Positions 41,422 to 54,256 of a DNA stretch of 64,000 nucleotides are shown in pieces. The position numbers were made by a program, and so were the translations under genes. Origin of the DNA: Dehalococcoidia bacterium (GTDB taxonomy: Bacteria; Chloroflexota; Dehalococcoidia; Lucifugimonadales; UBA3495); NCBI GenBank assembly GCA_965262735.1, contig CBDHFS010000002.1, positions 2,034,802 through 2,098,801 on the forward strand. Reading direction: 5' to 3'. Under the pieces are notes generated by a model. The model did no database searches. It was not told the origin of the DNA and saw nothing but the letters and a program-made list of their open reading frames with translations. How positions within the stretch are numbered: the stretch's first letter is position 1; each line of letters starts with the position of its first letter.

Positions 41422-42666
41422 TCACTCCCGGACGACGCCGGCCTCCACCAGACTATCTATCTCTGCCGCGTCGAAGCCGAACTCCAGCAACACTTCCCGG
41501 CTGTGTTCGCCCAGGCCCGGCGCCCGCCGCCGCACCGACCCCGGCGTTTCCGACAGCTTGACCGGCACCCCGATGTGGCGCAGCGTTCCCAAGGCCGGGT
41601 CTTCCAGGTCAACCAGCATATTCCGCGCTTGAACGTGGGGGTCGGCGTACACCTGGGCCATGTCGTATATCGGCCCGGCGACCACCCCCGCCGCCCCCAG
41701 AGTCTCCAGCCAGTGGCGGGTGTCCCGTTGGCCCAGGGTCTCTTCCAGCAGCGCGGCCAACTCCGCTTCCCGGGCCTTGCGATCGCTAGGGGCGCGGAAA
41801 CGGGCATCATCAATCAGCGCTTCCAACCCCACGGCCCGGCAGAACTGCTCCCAAGTTGTCTGGGTCGCGGCCCCGAGGTTGATGTAGCCGTCTTTCGTCC
41901 GCAAGGCTTGGTAGGGGGCCGAAACCCGGTGCGCCGAACCCAGCGGGCCGGGAACGTCTCCGTTGGCGAAGTAACCGGAGGACTCCCAGATGGTGTAGGC
42001 AATCCCCGCTTCCAGCAGGGAGGTGTCCACCATTTGGCCCTGCCCGGTCTTGAGGGTGTGGATGTAGGCTGCCAGGATGCCGTTGGCCGCCAGCAGCCCT
42101 GCGGAGATGTCGGTGATGGGGACCCCGACCTTGGCCGGGGGTCCGTCGGGAAACCCGGTAATGCTCATCAACCCGCTCATGCCCTAGGCCACCAGGTCAA
42201 ACCCGCCCCGGTTCCGGTAAGGGCCGGTGCTGCCGAAACCGGAAATTGTGCAGTAGACCAGGTTGGGCCTCATGCCGCTGAGCCTCTCGTACCCCAACCC
42301 CAGCCGGTCCATAACCCCCGGACGGAAGTTCTCCGCCACCACGTCCGCCGATTCCAGCAGCCGTAGAAAGACCTCGCGCCCGGTGTCGGCTTGCAGGTTC
42401 AGGGCCAGGCTTCGCTTGTTGCGGTTCAAGGCCAGGAACCCGGCCCCCCAACCGTTGACGAAGGGCGGCCCCATTCGACGGGTATCATCGCCGCCGTTGG
42501 GTCTTTCCACCTTGACGACGTTGGCGCCCAGGTCGGCCAGCATCATGGTGCAAACCGGCCCGGCCATTATCTGGGTTAGGTCCAGCGCCACCACGCCGTC
42601 CAGGGGTCCCTTTGGCATTGCCATCGCTCCACCATCCGACAAAAATCTCGCCTGGAATTCGTGCAA
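41422..42666 (-). pseudogene. family III CoA-transferase (CaiB/BaiF/Frc type) interrupted by one in-frame TAG
   Basis: LDGVVALDLTQIMAGPVCTMMLADLGANVVKVE...GGFDLVA-TAG-GMSGLMSITG. TAG at 42184-42186 replaces the Gln of the conserved D-x-x-x-Q-x-x-S-G motif. Both halves are in the same frame. Confidence 0.8.
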
Positions 42667-42712
42667 CGAGTCTACCAGAACCGGGGATTGCCCGGTGCCA
42701 CTGCGTCATAAA

Positions 42713-42869
42713 GTAACAGTTCAGACTTGGTGAGATGAATTGGTTTCAGCCAACTGCCACTTTTTTCAGGGGTTTGGGGCAGGAGGTTTGAGGGATTCAT
42801 CCCCCAACGTAACCCAACCCCCATATTCCGCCATCAGCCACTCCGCTCCCCTCAACCCTGAACAGTTAC
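42713..42869 (+). mobile_element. MITE copy D
   Basis: Complete ends, flanked by the 8-bp duplication gtcataaa (42705-42712 and 42870-42877). Confidence 0.9.
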
Positions 42870-43019
42870 GTCATAAACTGTCGGCATCATTACCATCGCC
42901 AAGTGCGTGGCCGGCTCCTGGTTCCACGTGGAGCTGTTCGGCATCCCGCCCACAACACCTTCGCCGTCCTTGCCAAGCCTAGGCCCAGGCGGATAAAATT
43001 CCGTAATGAAGGAACAGAT

Positions 43020-43736
43020 ATGACCACAATCAACACAGAATCCGACTTCCTGCGCGCCCTGACGGAACACCCCGAATGGAAGGCAGCCGTCCGCGCCCAA
43101 ATACTGGGCGAAGAATTGCTGCTGCTGCCGGTGCGGTTCAATGCCTTCGTCGAGGAGCAACGGGAGGTGAACACCGAGTTCCGTGAGGCGATCACTGAGA
43201 TCCGGGAATCAGTCGCCGATCTGAAATCATTCAACGTTGAGCAGAAGAAGGCGAACGCCGAGTTCAGAGAGTCAATCGCCGAGTTGAAGGAGTCGACCCA
43301 ACGGATAATCGATGACGTGGGAATCCTCAAAGGAGACCTCGTTGGACGCGCCGCCTGGGACCGCCACCAGGAGATCCTAGACCAGCTTGGTTTCACCCTC
43401 GTAAGAATGCTTACCAAGAATGACCTGAACAACCTGGCCAACCGCAGCGGCACCACCGGCGCAGATCTTCGCAGCTTCTTCCGGGCCGACCTCATCATGG
43501 AGGTCACCGGCGATGATGGCAGCCCCCAATACGTTGCGATGGAAGCCTCATACACCGCCGACGAGCGCGACACCGACCGGGTGTTGCGCAACTGCCGGTT
43601 CATGCAGCATTTCACCAACCGACCGGCCCACCCGGTCATCTCCAGCCTCCGCAACACGCACCATGTCCTGTCCCTGGTCAACAATGGGACAGTCCATTGG
43701 TTCGAGTTGACGGAAAGGGACCTCCACACCGACTGA
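43020..43736 (+). CDS. coiled-coil protein with conserved C-terminal domain (possibly PD-(D/E)xK-like), paralog 1
   Basis: MTTINTESDFLRALTEHPEWKAAVRAQILGEELLLLP, a heptad-rich middle, and C-terminus LGFTLVRMLT...FFRADLIMEV...YVAMEASYT. Near-identical paralog at 49274-49978. Confidence 0.6.
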   Translation: MTTINTESDFLRALTEHPEWKAAVRAQILGEELLLLPVRFNAFVEEQREVNTEFREAITEIRESVADLKSFNVEQKKANAEFRESIAELKESTQRIIDDVGILKGDLVGRAAWDRHQEILDQLGFTLVRMLTKNDLNNLANRSGTTGADLRSFFRADLIMEVTGDDGSPQYVAMEASYTADERDTDRVLRNCRFMQHFTNRPAHPVISSLRNTHHVLSLVNNGTVHWFELTERDLHTD

Positions 43737-43946
43737 TACTGCCCCGCGGCCTCCGATTCCCCCTATTGTGCCGAAGTTATAACGCCACAGCCTCGGGGAA
43801 ATTCTCGATTGACCAATCTCAGGGGCCGGGGTATAACTAGCAAACCGCAACCCGTTGGAACCCGGCAGCCTTCAGTCCCGGTTCATTAGTCCCGGTTCAT
43901 TGTCGGAACGCTCAGCCATCCCGCAGCTGTTCCCAAGAGGTATCTG

Positions 43947-45410
43947 TTGAGTTCTTCCCTTGAGTCCGCCAACCGGCCCCGGGTCAAACGGGACGCCGAC
44001 TACATCTTCCACGAGTTGACCCGCAGCATCTGCCCGGAATGCAAGTCGGTTATTGACGCCCAGATAATCATCAGGGACAACCGGGTTTTCATGCGGAAGC
44101 GATGCCAGACCCACGGTTGGTTTGAAGCAATCATCAGCTCCGACGCGGAGATGTACGTCAACTCCGTCAAGTTCAACAAACCGGGGACCATCCCGCTGGA
44201 ATTCAGTACCGAGGTTAACAACGGCTGTCCCCTGGACTGCGGCCTGTGCCCGGAGCACAAGCAGCACATGTGCCTGGCTCTGGTCGAGGTCAACACTGCC
44301 TGCAACCTGAATTGCCCGGTCTGTTTCGCCAACGCCGGCATTGGCTACAGCCTGACCCTTGAGCAGGTTGAGTCCATGCTGGACCGCCTCGTGGAAACCG
44401 AGGGAGACCCGGAGGTGGTGCAGTTCAGCGGTGGTGAGCCGACAATCCACCCCCAGCTTCCCGAAATGATTCAGGCGGCCAAAGACCGGGGCATCCGGCA
44501 GGTGATGGTCAATACCAACGGCGTCCGCATTGCCAGGGACGACCGGTTCCTGGGGCGGTTGGCCCAACTGGACCCGGTCATCTATTTCCAGTTTGACGGG
44601 CTTAGACCGTCCACCTACCAGGCGATACGGGGCGAAGACCTGCTGGACACCAAGCTGCGCGCCCTGGACCGCATTAACGACGCCGGCCTAACCGCTGTGC
44701 TGGTGGCCGCGGTTGAGCGCGGCATCAACGTTGACGAAGTGGGTGCGATTGTGGAGTTCGGCTTGGAGCATCCGGCGGTGCGTGGCGTCGTGCTTCAGCC
44801 GGTGACCCACGCTGGTCGCCACCCGGATTTTGACCCCATGCAGCGGGTCACCATTCCCGACGTCATCCACGGGATTGTCCAACAGACCGCGGGGCGGTTC
44901 GTCCTGGACGACTTCGTGCCGGTACCCTGCTGTTTCCCCACCTGCCAGGTCAACACCTACGTCTTTGTGGACGGCGATACGGTCGTGCCGCTGCCCCGGC
45001 TATTGAAGATTGACGATTACCTGGACTACATCACCAACCGGGCGCTGCCCCGACTGCCCGATGCCGCCGCGGTACAAAAGGCGCTGGAGGGTCTGTGGTC
45101 GGCCTCGGCGGTGGGCGGGGCCGAAGCTACTGCCCAGCAGTTCCAATGCGCCTGCGGCCCCGGACTGGACCTGCCCGGCGACCTCACCCACCTGAAAGAC
45201 CACGTATTCCAAATTGCCATCAAGGATTTCCTCGACCCCTACACCTTCAACGTCAAGCAGGTGATGAAGTGCTGCGTGGGGGTCCTCGTCCCCGACGGAC
45301 GGGCCATACCTTTCTGCGCCTACAACTCCGTGGGGTATCGCGAGCAGGTCCGGGAGCAGCTTACCCGCGAGCAGTCCCAGCGTCTCCCGGTTGACCGACC
45401 CGCTGGATAA
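43947..45410 (+). CDS. radical SAM protein with N-terminal Cys-rich domain (MJ0619/Tes-like layout)
   Basis: CPECKSV...RCQTHG, then GCPLDCGLCPEHKQHMC, then the radical SAM CNLNCPVCFA and GGEPT. 487 aa. TTG start. Confidence 0.75.
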   Translation: MSSSLESANRPRVKRDADYIFHELTRSICPECKSVIDAQIIIRDNRVFMRKRCQTHGWFEAIISSDAEMYVNSVKFNKPGTIPLEFSTEVNNGCPLDCGLCPEHKQHMCLALVEVNTACNLNCPVCFANAGIGYSLTLEQVESMLDRLVETEGDPEVVQFSGGEPTIHPQLPEMIQAAKDRGIRQVMVNTNGVRIARDDRFLGRLAQLDPVIYFQFDGLRPSTYQAIRGEDLLDTKLRALDRINDAGLTAVLVAAVERGINVDEVGAIVEFGLEHPAVRGVVLQPVTHAGRHPDFDPMQRVTIPDVIHGIVQQTAGRFVLDDFVPVPCCFPTCQVNTYVFVDGDTVVPLPRLLKIDDYLDYITNRALPRLPDAAAVQKALEGLWSASAVGGAEATAQQFQCACGPGLDLPGDLTHLKDHVFQIAIKDFLDPYTFNVKQVMKCCVGVLVPDGRAIPFCAYNSVGYREQVREQLTREQSQRLPVDRPAG

Positions 45411-45428
45411 GCGGAAAGGAGGCGCGTA

Positions 45429-46241
45429 ATGGAACCTGACCGACCGGACCAGACGACCGCGCTGGCCTGCTGCGCCGACCTGTACCAGTCCGACCTGGCG
45501 CGCCTGCTGCTGGGCGATTCCCTGCATCCCGGGGGACTGCGGCTGACGCACCGCCTCGGTACGTTGATGGGCATTCAACCCGATGATTGGGTGGTTGACC
45601 TGGCCTGTGGCCGGGGAATCAGCGGGATGGCCGTTTCCCGGGCATTTCGCTGCAAGGTCGCCGGCATCGAATACGGCGTTGCCGCCGTGGCGGAGGCCCA
45701 CGCCGGAGCTCGGGAAGCGGCAGTCCCGGCCCGCGCCTTCTTCATCAACGCTGACGCCGGGCTGCCGCCCATCAGGCTGTCCAGCGTTGATGCTGTCCTT
45801 TGCGAGTGTTCCATGAGCATCTTCGCCGACCAGCCCGGCGCCATTGTCCAGGCTGCCCGAATGCTCCGGCCAGGAGGGATTCTGGGCTTGAGCGACGTCA
45901 CCGTCAAACCCGGCAGTCTGCCGGACGGCTTCCCCGAAGCTGTCGGCCAGGCGTTGTGTTTGACCGGCGCTCTGGACGTGGCCGGGTATACCCGGTTGGC
46001 GGGGGATGCCGGGCTGCTCCCCGAACGGTCCGAAGACGCTTCGGACGCAATAGCCGACTTGCTGAATGACCTGGAAGGCAAGCTGGGCGCGCTGGCGGCC
46101 TGGCAGTCGCTGGCGGCGGGGACGCTGCCGGTGAAAAAAGAGTGGCTGGACGCGGCCCCAGGCATTATCAATCATCTGCGCCGGCTAATAGACGACGGGG
46201 CGCTGGGATACTGGCTGTTCACGGCCCGGAAGCCGGTCTGA
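45429..46241 (+). CDS. class I SAM-dependent methyltransferase
   Basis: N-terminal ACCADLYQSDLARLLLGDSLHPGG, motif I VVDLACGRGISG, post-I GGILGLSDV. Confidence 0.8.
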   Translation: MEPDRPDQTTALACCADLYQSDLARLLLGDSLHPGGLRLTHRLGTLMGIQPDDWVVDLACGRGISGMAVSRAFRCKVAGIEYGVAAVAEAHAGAREAAVPARAFFINADAGLPPIRLSSVDAVLCECSMSIFADQPGAIVQAARMLRPGGILGLSDVTVKPGSLPDGFPEAVGQALCLTGALDVAGYTRLAGDAGLLPERSEDASDAIADLLNDLEGKLGALAAWQSLAAGTLPVKKEWLDAAPGIINHLRRLIDDGALGYWLFTARKPV

Positions 46242-46470
46242 ACCGGCGGAAAGCGTGGTCATCCTGGGCGACGGCGGCAAGGAAGGATGGACCGGCACGG
46301 CGTTGGCTGAATCCGGGGATAATGAGGTTGTGTTATGTATATTCTATCGCCGCAAATTGGTATTATGTAGTCCAAGCTGGATGCCAAGGTTCCTTGGGTC
46401 CCAACATGGGGGGCCACCACAATCCGGTCCAATACCGCTGGATGTGACTGAGATGTATGAGATGTAATTG

Positions 46471-47160
46471 ATGGGTAGCGAAGACTTCCTGCTCCTGCAA
46501 AAGCTGACCTTCTCCCTGCTGCTGGGATACCTTCTCGGGTCGGTGCCTTTTGCCCACCTGGCGGGCCGGCTGAAAGGCGTGGACATCTTCAGCACGGGCA
46601 GCCAGCGGGCTGGCACCGCCAACATATTCTGGAACGTAAGCCGTCGGGTCGGGGTGATGGTGTTAGCTGGCGACGTGGCCAAAGGCTCCCTCGCCGTATT
46701 CGCCGCCCAGCAAATGAACTGTCCGGTCCCCCTGTTGGTAATGGCAGGGGCCGCCGCCGTACTGGGACACTGGAAATCACTGTTCACCGGCTTCAAGGGC
46801 GGCGATGGGATGGCGACGCTGCTGGGAGTGACCGCCACGTTAATCCCCGTCCTGGCCGTGCCGGGCATCGCCCTGGGGGTTACAGCTGTGGCGCTGGCCT
46901 GGAAGTCCCATTACCGTTCTGGCGTGGGGATCGCCGTCTGCTATACGCTGGTGCTGCTGCTGAGTCTGGTAATTTTGCAGCGCGACCAGCAGTTGACCCT
47001 GGGACTGACTGCCCTGGCCGCGCTGGTGCTGACCCACAACATTGTTGTCCACCGGCGGGTCGCCGCGTCGGGCGTGGAGCCCCGCGATGACTTGGACGAC
47101 TTGGAGCTGGACCTGACCGTGGACGACGATCTGGAGTCCGCTGTACCCGAACAACCCTAG
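46471..47160 (+). CDS. divergent PlsY-family (glycerol-3-phosphate acyltransferase-like) membrane protein
   Basis: LLLGYLLGSVPFAHLAG, but the usual GSGNxGATN motif reads GSQRAGTANI. A second, more canonical plsY lies at 53576-54256. Confidence 0.6.
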   Translation: MGSEDFLLLQKLTFSLLLGYLLGSVPFAHLAGRLKGVDIFSTGSQRAGTANIFWNVSRRVGVMVLAGDVAKGSLAVFAAQQMNCPVPLLVMAGAAAVLGHWKSLFTGFKGGDGMATLLGVTATLIPVLAVPGIALGVTAVALAWKSHYRSGVGIAVCYTLVLLLSLVILQRDQQLTLGLTALAALVLTHNIVVHRRVAASGVEPRDDLDDLELDLTVDDDLESAVPEQP

Positions 47161-49273: not shown

Positions 49274-49978
49274 TCAGTCGGTGTGGAGGTCCCTTTCCGT
49301 CAACTGGAACCAGTGGACCGTCCCATCGTTGACCAGGGGCTGGACATGGTGGGTGTTGCGGAGGCTGGAGATGACCGCGTGGGCCGGGCGGTCGGTGAAC
49401 TGCTGCATGAACTGGCAGTTGCGCAACACCCGGTCGGTGTCGCGCTCGTCGGCGGTGTATGAGGCTTCCATCGCAACGTACTGGAGGCTGCCATCATCGC
49501 CGGTAACCTCCATGATGAGGTCAGCCCGGAAGAAGCTGCGGAGACTGGCTCCGGCGATGCCGGTGGTGTGGCTGCGGTTGGCCAGGTTGTTCAGGTCGTT
49601 CTTGGTGAGCATTCTGACGAGAGTGAAACCAAGCTGGTCAAGGATGTCCTGATGGCGGTCCCAGGCAGCGCGTCCAACGAGGTCTCCCTTGAGAATCCCC
49701 ATGTCATCAAGCATGCGTTGGTTGAACTCCCGCTGCTCGCCGTTGAACTGTTCCTCCCTGACGTTGATCTCCTTCAGCTCGGCGACTGATTCCCTGAGCT
49801 CGGCGATTGAGTCCCGGAACTCAGTGTTCGCCTCTCGCTGCTCCTCAACGAAGGCATTGAACCGCACCGGCAGCATCAGCAGTTCTTCGCCCAGTATCTG
49901 GGCGCGAACAGCTGCCTTCCATTCGGGGTGTTCCGTCAGGGCGTGCAGAAAGTCGGATTCCGTGTTGATTGTGGTCAT
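49274..49978 (-). CDS. coiled-coil protein with conserved C-terminal domain, paralog 2
   Basis: MTTINTESDFLHALTEHPEWKAAVRAQILGEELLMLP... The upstream ~65 bp is also shared with paralog 1. Confidence 0.6.
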   Translation of the reverse strand: MTTINTESDFLHALTEHPEWKAAVRAQILGEELLMLPVRFNAFVEEQREANTEFRDSIAELRESVAELKEINVREEQFNGEQREFNQRMLDDMGILKGDLVGRAAWDRHQDILDQLGFTLVRMLTKNDLNNLANRSHTTGIAGASLRSFFRADLIMEVTGDDGSLQYVAMEASYTADERDTDRVLRNCQFMQQFTDRPAHAVISSLRNTHHVQPLVNDGTVHWFQLTERDLHTD

Positions 49979-53575: not shown

Positions 53576-54256
53576 TCACATCTCATGTAATGCGGGTGTC
53601 CGGTGTACCCAATCGTCGCGGCGGGCCACGTCCCGGTCGTGGAGCAGGCGGTTGACCAGCACGCTGCGCCAGGGCTGTCCTTCGGGACGGGAGACGGTAT
53701 TCCCCAGCGCCCGTTTCAGGATGGTCAACCCCAGCAGGGTAAGGAACAAAACTGCCGTGGCCGCGTGGTCGTCAAAAATGAAGGCCCAAACCGGCAGAGC
53801 CGCCAAGCAGCCGAGCACCCACGCAGCGGAGCTCGTGGTCAATTTCTTGCCTGCCCACGTCACGGCCAAGCACACAACCAACGCCACCGGGTTTACCGAC
53901 AGCAGCGTGCCGGCAACGACCGATATGCCCCGGCCGCCCTGCAACTTCACAAACGGCGACCAGTTGTGGCCGGCAATCGCCAGCGCCGGCGCGATTATCA
54001 GGAGGAAGGAGCCGCGCCCCAACCCAGCCACGTAAATGCCGGCCAGCATTGGCGTAGCCCCTTTTACCAGAATGTCGAAAATCAGCAGCGGAACCACCCA
54101 ATGGCGCCCCGCGTGCTGGGCCAGGTTTGAGCCTCCCACGTTGCCGCTGCCGTACTGCCGAATGTCTATGCCCCGGGCCAGCTTGCCCAGCACGTAGGCC
54201 GTCGGGACTGCGCCCACGAGGTAGGAATAGACGTACAACCCGGCGATTTCCCACAT
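53576..54256 (-). CDS. plsY: glycerol-3-phosphate acyltransferase PlsY
   Basis: YLVGAVPTAYVLGKL..GIDIRQYGSGNVGGSN and a multi-pass membrane profile. Confidence 0.8.
   Translation of the reverse strand: MWEIAGLYVYSYLVGAVPTAYVLGKLARGIDIRQYGSGNVGGSNLAQHAGRHWVVPLLIFDILVKGATPMLAGIYVAGLGRGSFLLIIAPALAIAGHNWSPFVKLQGGRGISVVAGTLLSVNPVALVVCLAVTWAGKKLTTSSAAWVLGCLAALPVWAFIFDDHAATAVLFLTLLGLTILKRALGNTVSRPEGQPWRSVLVNRLLHDRDVARRDDWVHRTPALHEM

Follow-up and report, generated by a model that had tools for sequence, protein, structure and literature searches.

The stretch of DNA analysed here, hereafter the window, comprises 64,000 nucleotides (nt) from a Dehalococcoidia bacterium, a marine member of the Chloroflexota of SAR202 type (assembly GCA_965262735.1, contig CBDHFS010000002.1, positions 2,034,802 to 2,098,801). 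Three genes lie close together in it on the + strand. They encode a protein of the radical S-adenosylmethionine (SAM) type, a class-I SAM methyltransferase and a divergent PlsY-family membrane protein, named PlsYb. An earlier note on this DNA had proposed that the three form a membrane-lipid remodelling cluster. Here, we conclude that the segment [43947-46241] is probably a two-gene accessory operon, in which a radical SAM protein of the Tes fold that is neither Tes nor TrsS is combined with a methyltransferase related to DVU_1556 and ArsM, and that PlsYb stands outside this system. The two genes occur together or not at all among close relatives, whereas PlsYb is a core gene of the family that is also found where the pair is missing.

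The three open reading frames (ORFs) and all of the motifs quoted in the earlier note were found in place. The radical SAM gene [43947-45410] encodes 487 amino acids (aa) and the methyltransferase gene [45429-46241] encodes 270. Between them is an operon junction of 18 nt [45411-45428], in which the Shine-Dalgarno motif AAGGAGG lies 7 nt ahead of the ATG of the second gene. PlsYb (230 aa) is encoded by the segment [46468-47160]. The spacer in front of it [46242-46467], noted before as 230 bp of lower GC, is 226 nt long, has a GC content of 0.54-0.58 compared with about 0.65 around it, and contains the upstream element of PlsYb itself. The GC content at third codon positions is 0.78-0.81 in all three ORFs, which is of the coding type, in a genome of about 64% GC. 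Pfam assigns PF23545 (Zn_ribbon_HMPTM) and PF04055 to the radical SAM protein, class-I methyltransferase domains to the product of the second gene, and PF02660 to PlsYb. Close homologs are found in metagenome-assembled genomes (MAGs) of the Dehalococcoidia/SAR202 group.

The radical SAM protein and its place in the superfamily

Four metal sites are defined in the structure of GDGT-MAS: a rubredoxin-type site C-x2-C-x20-C-x2-H, the cluster [4Fe-4S]N with a His and three Cys as ligands, the radical SAM cluster bound by C-x3-C-x2-C, and a C-terminal cluster (PMC9433317). The motifs of all four are conserved in the window protein. The rubredoxin-type site is made of C29, C32, C53 and H56 (C29-P-E-C32...C53-Q-T-H56). 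The N-terminal auxiliary cluster consists of C94, C98, C101 and a His, in the region G93-CPLDCGLCPEHKQHMC109, and the radical SAM cluster of C119, C123 and C126 (C119-NLN-C123-PV-C126). The cysteines of the C-terminal cluster are C333, C442/C443 and C457. In the Protein Data Bank (PDB), the protein matched GDGT-MAS (7TOL) over its full length, with both halves aligned and E=1e-83. An AlphaFold2 model (pLDDT 90, pTM 0.90) aligned in Foldseek to 7TOM/7TOL with a template modelling (TM) score of 0.82 and 33% identity; the next match, MoaA, scored 0.43. The protein is thus predicted to have the GDGT-MAS/Tes fold. The domain order of the MJ0619/Tes group (NF045702; PF23545 and PF04055), which the earlier note had given for it, is borne out by this comparison.

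The C-terminal site has diverged. In GDGT-MAS, the carbon radical is parked on a sulfur of the C-terminal cluster and then coupled to the second tail, and both Met439, the labile ligand of this cluster, and Tyr459 are "completely conserved" in 1000 archaeal homologs (PMC9433317). In the alignment to GDGT-MAS, Met439 corresponds to K426 of the window protein and Tyr459 to V446. The representatives of the Tes clade have Met at the first of these positions in 8 out of 10 cases, and Tyr at the second, again in 8 out of 10. All ten also have an insertion of about 23 residues before the first Cys of the C-terminal cluster, which is absent from the window protein and from all other clades. Furthermore, three extra cysteines, C328 (in the segment PVPC) and C401-x-C403, are conserved in the clade of the window protein and have no counterpart in Tes. 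The obligate methyltransferase partner is a further difference from Tes, and so is the occurrence in a bacterial, aerobic lineage where the gene is dispensable.

The window protein scores below the cut-offs of both curated models of named relatives. The Tes model NF045702 gave 349.1 bits, compared with a cut-off of 450, and its best stretch covers only residues [25-333]. The TrsS model NF045646 gave 358.1 bits, compared with a cut-off of 490, and matched residues [25-461] in one stretch; over the C-terminal half, the alignment with TrsS is better than that with Tes. The Tes model performed as expected on control genomes; its cut-off was passed in 3 of 14 of them, and the best match in the genome of the window, 285 bits, was below it. 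Among 1.8 billion representatives searched, 11,051 relatives of the radical SAM protein were identified. A maximum-likelihood (ML) tree was made from 101 full-length representatives, and its clades were labelled by the NCBIfam scores of 30 of them, so that the labels stand for the cut-offs of curated hidden Markov models and not for the experimentally characterised Tes sequences themselves. Within one branch of 38 rows, the representatives above the Tes cut-off and those above the TrsS cut-off make up two sister clades. The window protein is in the other branch, of 63 rows (Shimodaira-Hasegawa-like approximate likelihood ratio test, SH-aLRT, 99), where all 21 scored members fail both the Tes and the TrsS cut-offs. 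By its scores and in the ML tree, the window protein is placed in a large unnamed branch of the superfamily, apart from Tes and TrsS. The membership in the Tes group that had been assigned to it was not borne out, either by the score or by the signature residues.

Two other candidates were rejected. Mss, the bacterial membrane-spanning lipid synthase of Thermotoga and Thermoanaerobacter, is likewise a radical SAM enzyme, for which the coupling of lipid tails has been proposed or shown. It was ruled out as a relative; the window protein is not homologous to it beyond the radical SAM core, and the authors of the Mss study found no Tes homolog in the model organisms that bear Mss (PMC13159169). 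A selenocysteine in the homolog from one genome (G300), which had been flagged with "1 TGA", was also ruled out, as this TGA is the stop codon that ends an intact protein.

The gene pair, its distribution and the resident PlsY paralog

The methyltransferase gene is located directly 3' of the radical SAM gene in 79 of 80 SAR202-type loci, and the same arrangement was seen in the metagenomic contexts of four distant representatives. In loci from named genomes, it is directly downstream in 49 of 80, with a 4-nt overlap of the two genes in at least 17. These loci come from eight phyla, which are the Chloroflexota (including Ktedonobacteria and Tepidiforma), Acidobacteriota, Actinomycetota (Streptomyces, Kitasatospora, Haloechinothrix and Mycobacterium), Armatimonadota, Dormibacterota, and the Heimdall-, Thor- and Thaumarchaeota. 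No methyltransferase partner was found in the more distant clades from Planctomycetota, Paenibacillus, cyanobacteria and Bacteroidota. Among 61 close relatives, 19 genomes have both genes, always adjacent, and 42 have neither, which bears out the link between these two genes that the earlier note had drawn. A natural fusion of methyltransferase and radical SAM protein (P0225) occurs in the TrsS clade. The radical SAM protein and its obligate partner, the methyltransferase, are thus a pair that is inherited, lost and, in a sister clade, fused as one unit.

The N-terminal region of the methyltransferase has the motifs A-C14-C15-ADLY and H33-P-G-G. Across phyla, the conserved elements are K-x-CC-A...Y, HPGG, the SAM-binding glycine loop, D-A-V-x-x-E-C and A-C-I/L-x-D/G-A. 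The curated model that ranked first for each of the 24 module methyltransferases sampled was that of the DVU_1556 family, the partner of TrsS; those of arsenite methyltransferases came next. The window enzyme is homologous to the DVU_1556 family and has in common with it HPGG and the cysteines of E-C...C-x-x-G-A; it differs in an extra N-terminal extension with the CC motif. When the Cys-bearing core alone was used as the query, ArsM structures were the top PDB matches. In ArsM, Cys44 and Cys72 make a disulfide cascade, and Cys174 and Cys224 are the metalloid-binding pair (PMC6138428). The invariant C127 and C177 of the window enzyme align with the cysteines of "SNC" and "ECLAGA" of ArsM, which are this pair of Cys174 and Cys224. 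At the N-terminus, C14-C15 is present, at most as a tentative counterpart of Cys44 and Cys72, and HPGG falls in the region of Cys72. Identification as ArsM by comparison of the whole protein was weak, with MitM, RebM-like and sugar O-methyltransferases scoring higher. The methyltransferase appears to be a cysteine-rich class-I enzyme related to the DVU_1556 and ArsM families. It does not resemble a lipid C-methylase.

The pair, hereafter the cassette, is carried by 3 of the 8 genomes sampled from the genus, by 17 of 38 from the family and by 3 of 24 from the rest of the order in this sample; the counts are 23 of 201 for the class and 28 of 251 for the phylum. Where it is present within the family, its site is always identical. 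Sequence identity among relatives is 77-89% for the radical SAM protein, compared with 43-77% for the methyltransferase and 43-86% for PlsYb. This pattern fits an ancestral presence with repeated loss, the enzyme being strongly constrained wherever it is retained. The cassette is accessory and dispensable, even within one genus. Its cultured carriers include Streptomyces vastus, Kitasatospora hibisci, Dictyobacter alpinus and Mycobacterium sp. SM1.

PlsYb has its own history at this site. It has a score of 103.6 bits to PF02660, compared with a gathering threshold of 24.1, and of 95.5 bits to the equivalog model TIGR00023, which has a cut-off of 137.2. The D-x-x-KG and H...F-x-GG-x-G motifs of PlsY can be recognised in it by eye. 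However, the phosphate-loop motif is GSQRAGTANI, and most of its 74 orthologs have GS-x-x-AG-T/A-AN where the standard is GSGN-x-G-x-x-N. The earlier note had pointed to a second, more standard plsY in the window [53576-54256]. This gene does have PF02660 and the motif GSGNVGGSN, but the genome has five PF02660 paralogs, the two copies in the window are the weakest matches and the best-scoring one is outside it (the three outside are at C2:1629003, C2:749571 and C2:3147862 of genome G000). The phosphate-loop motifs among the five are GSGRTGMTN, GSQNVGTLN, GSQRAGTAN and GSGNVGGSN. None of the paralogs that were scored reaches the PlsY equivalog cut-off, and the set can be described as a lineage expansion.

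Of 37 family genomes, 36 have an ortholog of PlsYb, among them all five cassette-free congeners (62-72% identity), and PlsYb is absent at E<=1e-25 from three more distant genomes that carry the cassette. The counts for both, cassette only, PlsYb only and neither are 16, 3, 30 and 12, and reveal no association. Three cassette-free congeners have a clean empty site, in the order trpS, inositol monophosphatase (IMPase), CoA-transferase, 208-237 nt, PlsYb and TPR protein. In the window and in the nearest relative, G429, the 2.3-kb cassette is located between the CoA-transferase and PlsYb. An upstream element of PlsYb, CAAATTGGTATTATG, at about 46353-46367, resembles an extended -10 promoter element, and both it and the sequence just upstream of the gene, CAGATTGGTATNATA, are kept whether or not a congener carries the cassette. 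In 74 of 81 SAR202-type loci, the three genes lie side by side. However, synteny across the family extends over the entire block from trpS to the TPR gene, and the adjacency of PlsY in it therefore has no functional weight. Outside the SAR202 lineage, a PlsY gene was adjacent to the module in none of 43 loci. PlsYb belongs to the core genes of the family, resides at this site and is independent of the cassette. Co-occurrence, which had been proposed as a check of all three genes, holds for the radical SAM protein and the methyltransferase and fails for PlsYb, which is not a dedicated member of the cluster.

Substrate, chemistry and rival explanations

Clustering of flanking genes found no third universal partner besides the methyltransferase. 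Only partial partners were found, namely SRPBCC proteins, MerA-like PNDR proteins and CDP-alcohol phosphatidyltransferases. An SRPBCC gene is in or beside the pair in at least 11 loci, of which three are from same-order relatives, seven from Actinomycetota and one from Limnocylindrales. In three Dehalococcoidia loci it lies between the two genes (L185:2914-3450, -; L186:3397-3933, +; L187:2307-2849, -). The protein has about 178 aa. Its fold in the model (pLDDT 84) is the helix grip of SRPBCC/Bet v 1 proteins, with TM scores of 0.6-0.7 to TcmN ARO/CYC, TTHA0849 and PYR/PYL. This fold is known to bind hydrophobic ligands. The genome of the window itself has no SRPBCC homolog at E<=1e-3. A CDP-alcohol phosphatidyltransferase gene adjoins the pair in four loci from three phyla, and a UbiA prenyltransferase gene is located 3' of the pair at the P0140 locus. 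In the sister clade C (L092:829-5408), the radical SAM gene is followed by genes for an Lgt-like protein, an ArsP-type permease and a YedE-like/ICMT fusion. A sister-clade protein of 733 aa (P0157) has the radical SAM protein fused to an Lgt-like membrane domain, for which the sole PDB match is E. coli Lgt. The radical SAM-Lgt arrangement is a separate, undescribed module that links the family to diacylglyceryl-transfer chemistry. Taken together, the SRPBCC, phosphatidyltransferase and Lgt contexts moderately favour a hydrophobic, probably lipid, substrate.

Other neighbours point to thiols and metals or belong to TrsS. MerA-like flavoprotein disulfide reductases are found in 7 of 43 loci, and genes for MauE, AhpC, thioredoxin and cation efflux in a few. 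A true TrsS locus (L096) encodes an aldehyde/xanthine-oxidase-type enzyme, XdhC, an AMP-ligase and a C_GCAxxG_C_C protein, a set for the maturation of a molybdenum (Mo) hydroxylase. Several fusion proteins of the TrsS clade (P0220, P0243, P0227, P0197, P0235 and P0225), with MobA-like NTP transferase, C_GCAxxG_C_C-like, AMP-ligase-like and methyltransferase parts, make a Rosetta-stone set for the TrsS system.

By analogy with GDGT-MAS, a hydrophobic chain, of which a lipid tail is the likeliest kind, would be threaded into the active site of the radical SAM protein, and a 5'-deoxyadenosyl radical would abstract a hydrogen from an unactivated carbon. The altered C-terminal site may then capture the carbon radical on a soft heteroatom, either a sulfur of the cluster or thiolate-bound S, Se or As, and not on a second lipid tail. 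The methyltransferase would hold the heteroatom with its ArsM-type Cys pair and then methylate it. A carbon-heteroatom bond is favoured over tail-to-tail coupling because Met and Tyr are replaced, three Cys are added, the Tes insertion is missing and the partner is a thiol-pair methyltransferase. A methylated heteroatom product is accordingly put forward as a tentative proposal, at less than an even chance, and a membrane-spanning lipid is an unlikely product. It is rather improbable that the pair installs the methylated heteroatom on a terminal unactivated carbon of a lipid tail, with As(III) or Se held by C328, C401 and C403, or the cluster sulfur, as the acceptor and the ArsM-like partner as the methylating enzyme. 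If this were true with arsenic, the products would be dimethylarsinoyl fatty acids or hydrocarbons, that is, marine arsenolipids, and the abundant SAR202 bacteria would be a microbial source of them; with sulfur, they would be methylthio-lipids. To our knowledge, no biosynthetic genes of marine arsenolipids have been described. The logic of the gene pair, a radical SAM protein with a thiol-pair methyltransferase that also has N-terminal cysteines, resembles that of ArsL/ArsM (arsinothricin) and ArsS/ArsM (arsenosugars). In contrast to these systems, the window radical SAM protein is unrelated to ArsL and ArsS and no ars operon surrounds it.

Two rival explanations keep a membrane-spanning lipid as the product. 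In the one proposed by the earlier note, the radical SAM protein couples acyl tails, the methyltransferase adds branches and PlsYb serves as an acyltransferase devoted to the modified acyl chains. The GDGT-MAS fold and cofactors, the adjacency in 74 of the 81 loci and the stably altered phosphate loop of the PlsYb subfamily speak for this cluster, and bacterial Tes homologs have indeed been proposed for the synthesis of glycerol dialkyl glycerol tetraethers of the branched type (brGDGTs), as the note had said of the bacterial relatives (PMC8941075, PMC11868695). It is nevertheless scarcely credible, given that PlsYb, one of five paralogs, is found in 30 genomes without the cassette and missing from three with it, remains with its upstream element at the empty site, and is not adjacent to the module outside the lineage. 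Neither the signature residues of Tes nor its insertion is present, and the cassette can be dispensed with inside a genus. Moreover, Streptomyces, Kitasatospora, Mycobacterium and Ktedonobacteria, which are not known to make membrane-spanning lipids, have the module as well. The other rival dispenses with PlsYb and describes the pair as a synthase of the tetraether or diabolic-acid type, in which fatty acyl tails are coupled through a C-C bond and the methyltransferase acts on the product or on an olefinic intermediate. The fold, the same four metal-site motifs, and the lipid-enzyme neighbours in several phyla are all consistent with such a synthase. Moreover, the Y459F/L variants of GDGT-MAS keep robust activity, so that the loss of Tyr459 need not abolish coupling (PMC9433317). 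The absence of the insertion of about 23 residues, the three extra conserved Cys, a thiol pair in the partner that is not expected for lipid C-methylation and the patchy presence even in one genus make this synthase unlikely. We also know of no reports of membrane-spanning lipids from the cultured hosts.

The two remaining rivals move away from lipids. A biotransformation or detoxification of metalloids or chalcogens (As, Se, Te, Hg) on a small non-lipid substrate, in which methylation by the ArsM-like enzyme goes along with a C-X bond formed by the radical SAM protein, would agree with the invariant pair equivalent to Cys174/Cys224 of ArsM and with known organoarsenical pathways, which are pairs of a radical SAM protein and ArsM. 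It would also suit the MerA-like reductases of seven loci, the MauE, AhpC, thioredoxin and cation-efflux neighbours, the ArsP-like permease and YedE-like transporter beside the clade-C member, the selenoproteins of the sister family TrsS, and an accessory distribution like that of a resistance trait. We assign it a low probability, as the flank survey found no linkage to ars, mer or sel operons, the methyltransferase is far below the ArsM cut-off, and the fold is that of a lipid-tail enzyme, with SRPBCC, Lgt and phosphatidyltransferase partners that point to hydrophobic substrates. Maturation of a protein or cofactor, as TrsS and DVU_1556 are thought to perform for a molybdenum hydroxylase, draws on the position of TrsS and Tes as sisters within one superfamily branch, on the partner family of TrsS as the best curated match of the methyltransferase, and on the gene content and fusions of TrsS loci. 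It is highly improbable for the cassette. No XdhC, AMP-ligase, C_GCAxxG_C_C or Mo-enzyme gene was found near it in the window or in 123 other module loci examined (79 SAR202-type, 43 other-lineage), and Met439, retained in TrsS, is lost in the window protein.

Several results weigh against the reading of the pair as a two-gene system that acts on lipid tails and is distinct from Tes and TrsS. In the approximately unbiased (AU) test, a tree constrained to unite Tes with the clade of the window protein was 64.8 log-likelihood units worse, with a borderline p=0.054 that does not formally reject it; a sister relation to Tes would speak for the two-gene synthase. The methyltransferase scores 111.9 bits to the DVU_1556-family model NF045667, with a cut-off of 155, and 51.7 bits to the ArsM model PRK11873, with a cut-off of 263; as a whole, it is closer to generic small-molecule O/N-methyltransferases than to ArsM. 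Lipid-enzyme neighbours are present in a minority of loci, and genes of ars, mer or sel operons were not consistently adjacent in the flank survey. TrsS is the nearest named relative with a homologous methyltransferase, and its locus has no lipid link. Finally, a 2026 review describes bacterial Tes homologs as bioinformatic only.

The superfamily and the fold were already known, and thousands of members are in the databases as "radical SAM protein". The searchable literature has no description of the separate branch, the changed active site, the obligate methyltransferase or the polymorphism of presence and absence. Branched GDGTs underlie widely used palaeotemperature and pH proxies. A study of the Black Sea counted Tes homologues in 111 Chloroflexota MAGs (PMC11868695), and such counts for brGDGT producers in Chloroflexota, Acidobacteriota and other phyla (PMC8941075, PMC11868695) probably refer in fact to the branch described here. 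Since proteins of the Chloroflexota/SAR202 type, like the related ones from Acidobacteriota and Actinomycetota, form a separate branch with a changed active site and an obligate thiol-pair methyltransferase as partner, and are dispensable within a single genus, homology searches at E<1e-50 over-call the potential for tetraethers. Bacterial "Tes homologues" of this kind are not to be read as markers of membrane-spanning lipids. The natural congeners with and without the cassette permit a comparison, and a compact two-gene construct is now defined. With this construct and the cultured carriers, the radical chemistry of a large family, with thousands of members, on hydrophobic substrates becomes testable.

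Flanking genes and minor observations

The flanks of the window are housekeeping genes, which include gyrB, a NUDIX protein gene, trpS, an inositol-monophosphatase-family gene, a family-III CoA-transferase gene, a TPR protein gene, recA and recX. A scan of the region on the + strand, with a simple sigma-70 model and for terminators, found no sites. Elsewhere, a small membrane protein with a G-CC-V-GP motif and no family match is encoded next to the module in five loci (L088:5371-5775 and the flanks of L087, L129, L138 and L140).

The gap between the CoA-transferase gene and the radical SAM gene [42667-43946] is 1280 nt in the window, compared with about 250 nt in G429 (locus L183). The extra DNA holds an ORF [42903-43736] that is an 81%-identical paralog of the segment [49274-49978]. 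Through this insertion, the cassette is set apart from the upstream region that it had ancestrally, and its promoter may be affected.

The CoA-transferase gene itself [41422-42666, - strand] is split by one in-frame TAG at 42184-42186, within the motif GFDLVA-Q-GMSGLMSITG. Recoding of the TAG was ruled out, with CAG or CAA (Gln) at this position in all 76 related loci. The TAG is therefore private to the window, and is either a C-to-T nonsense change or an assembly error.

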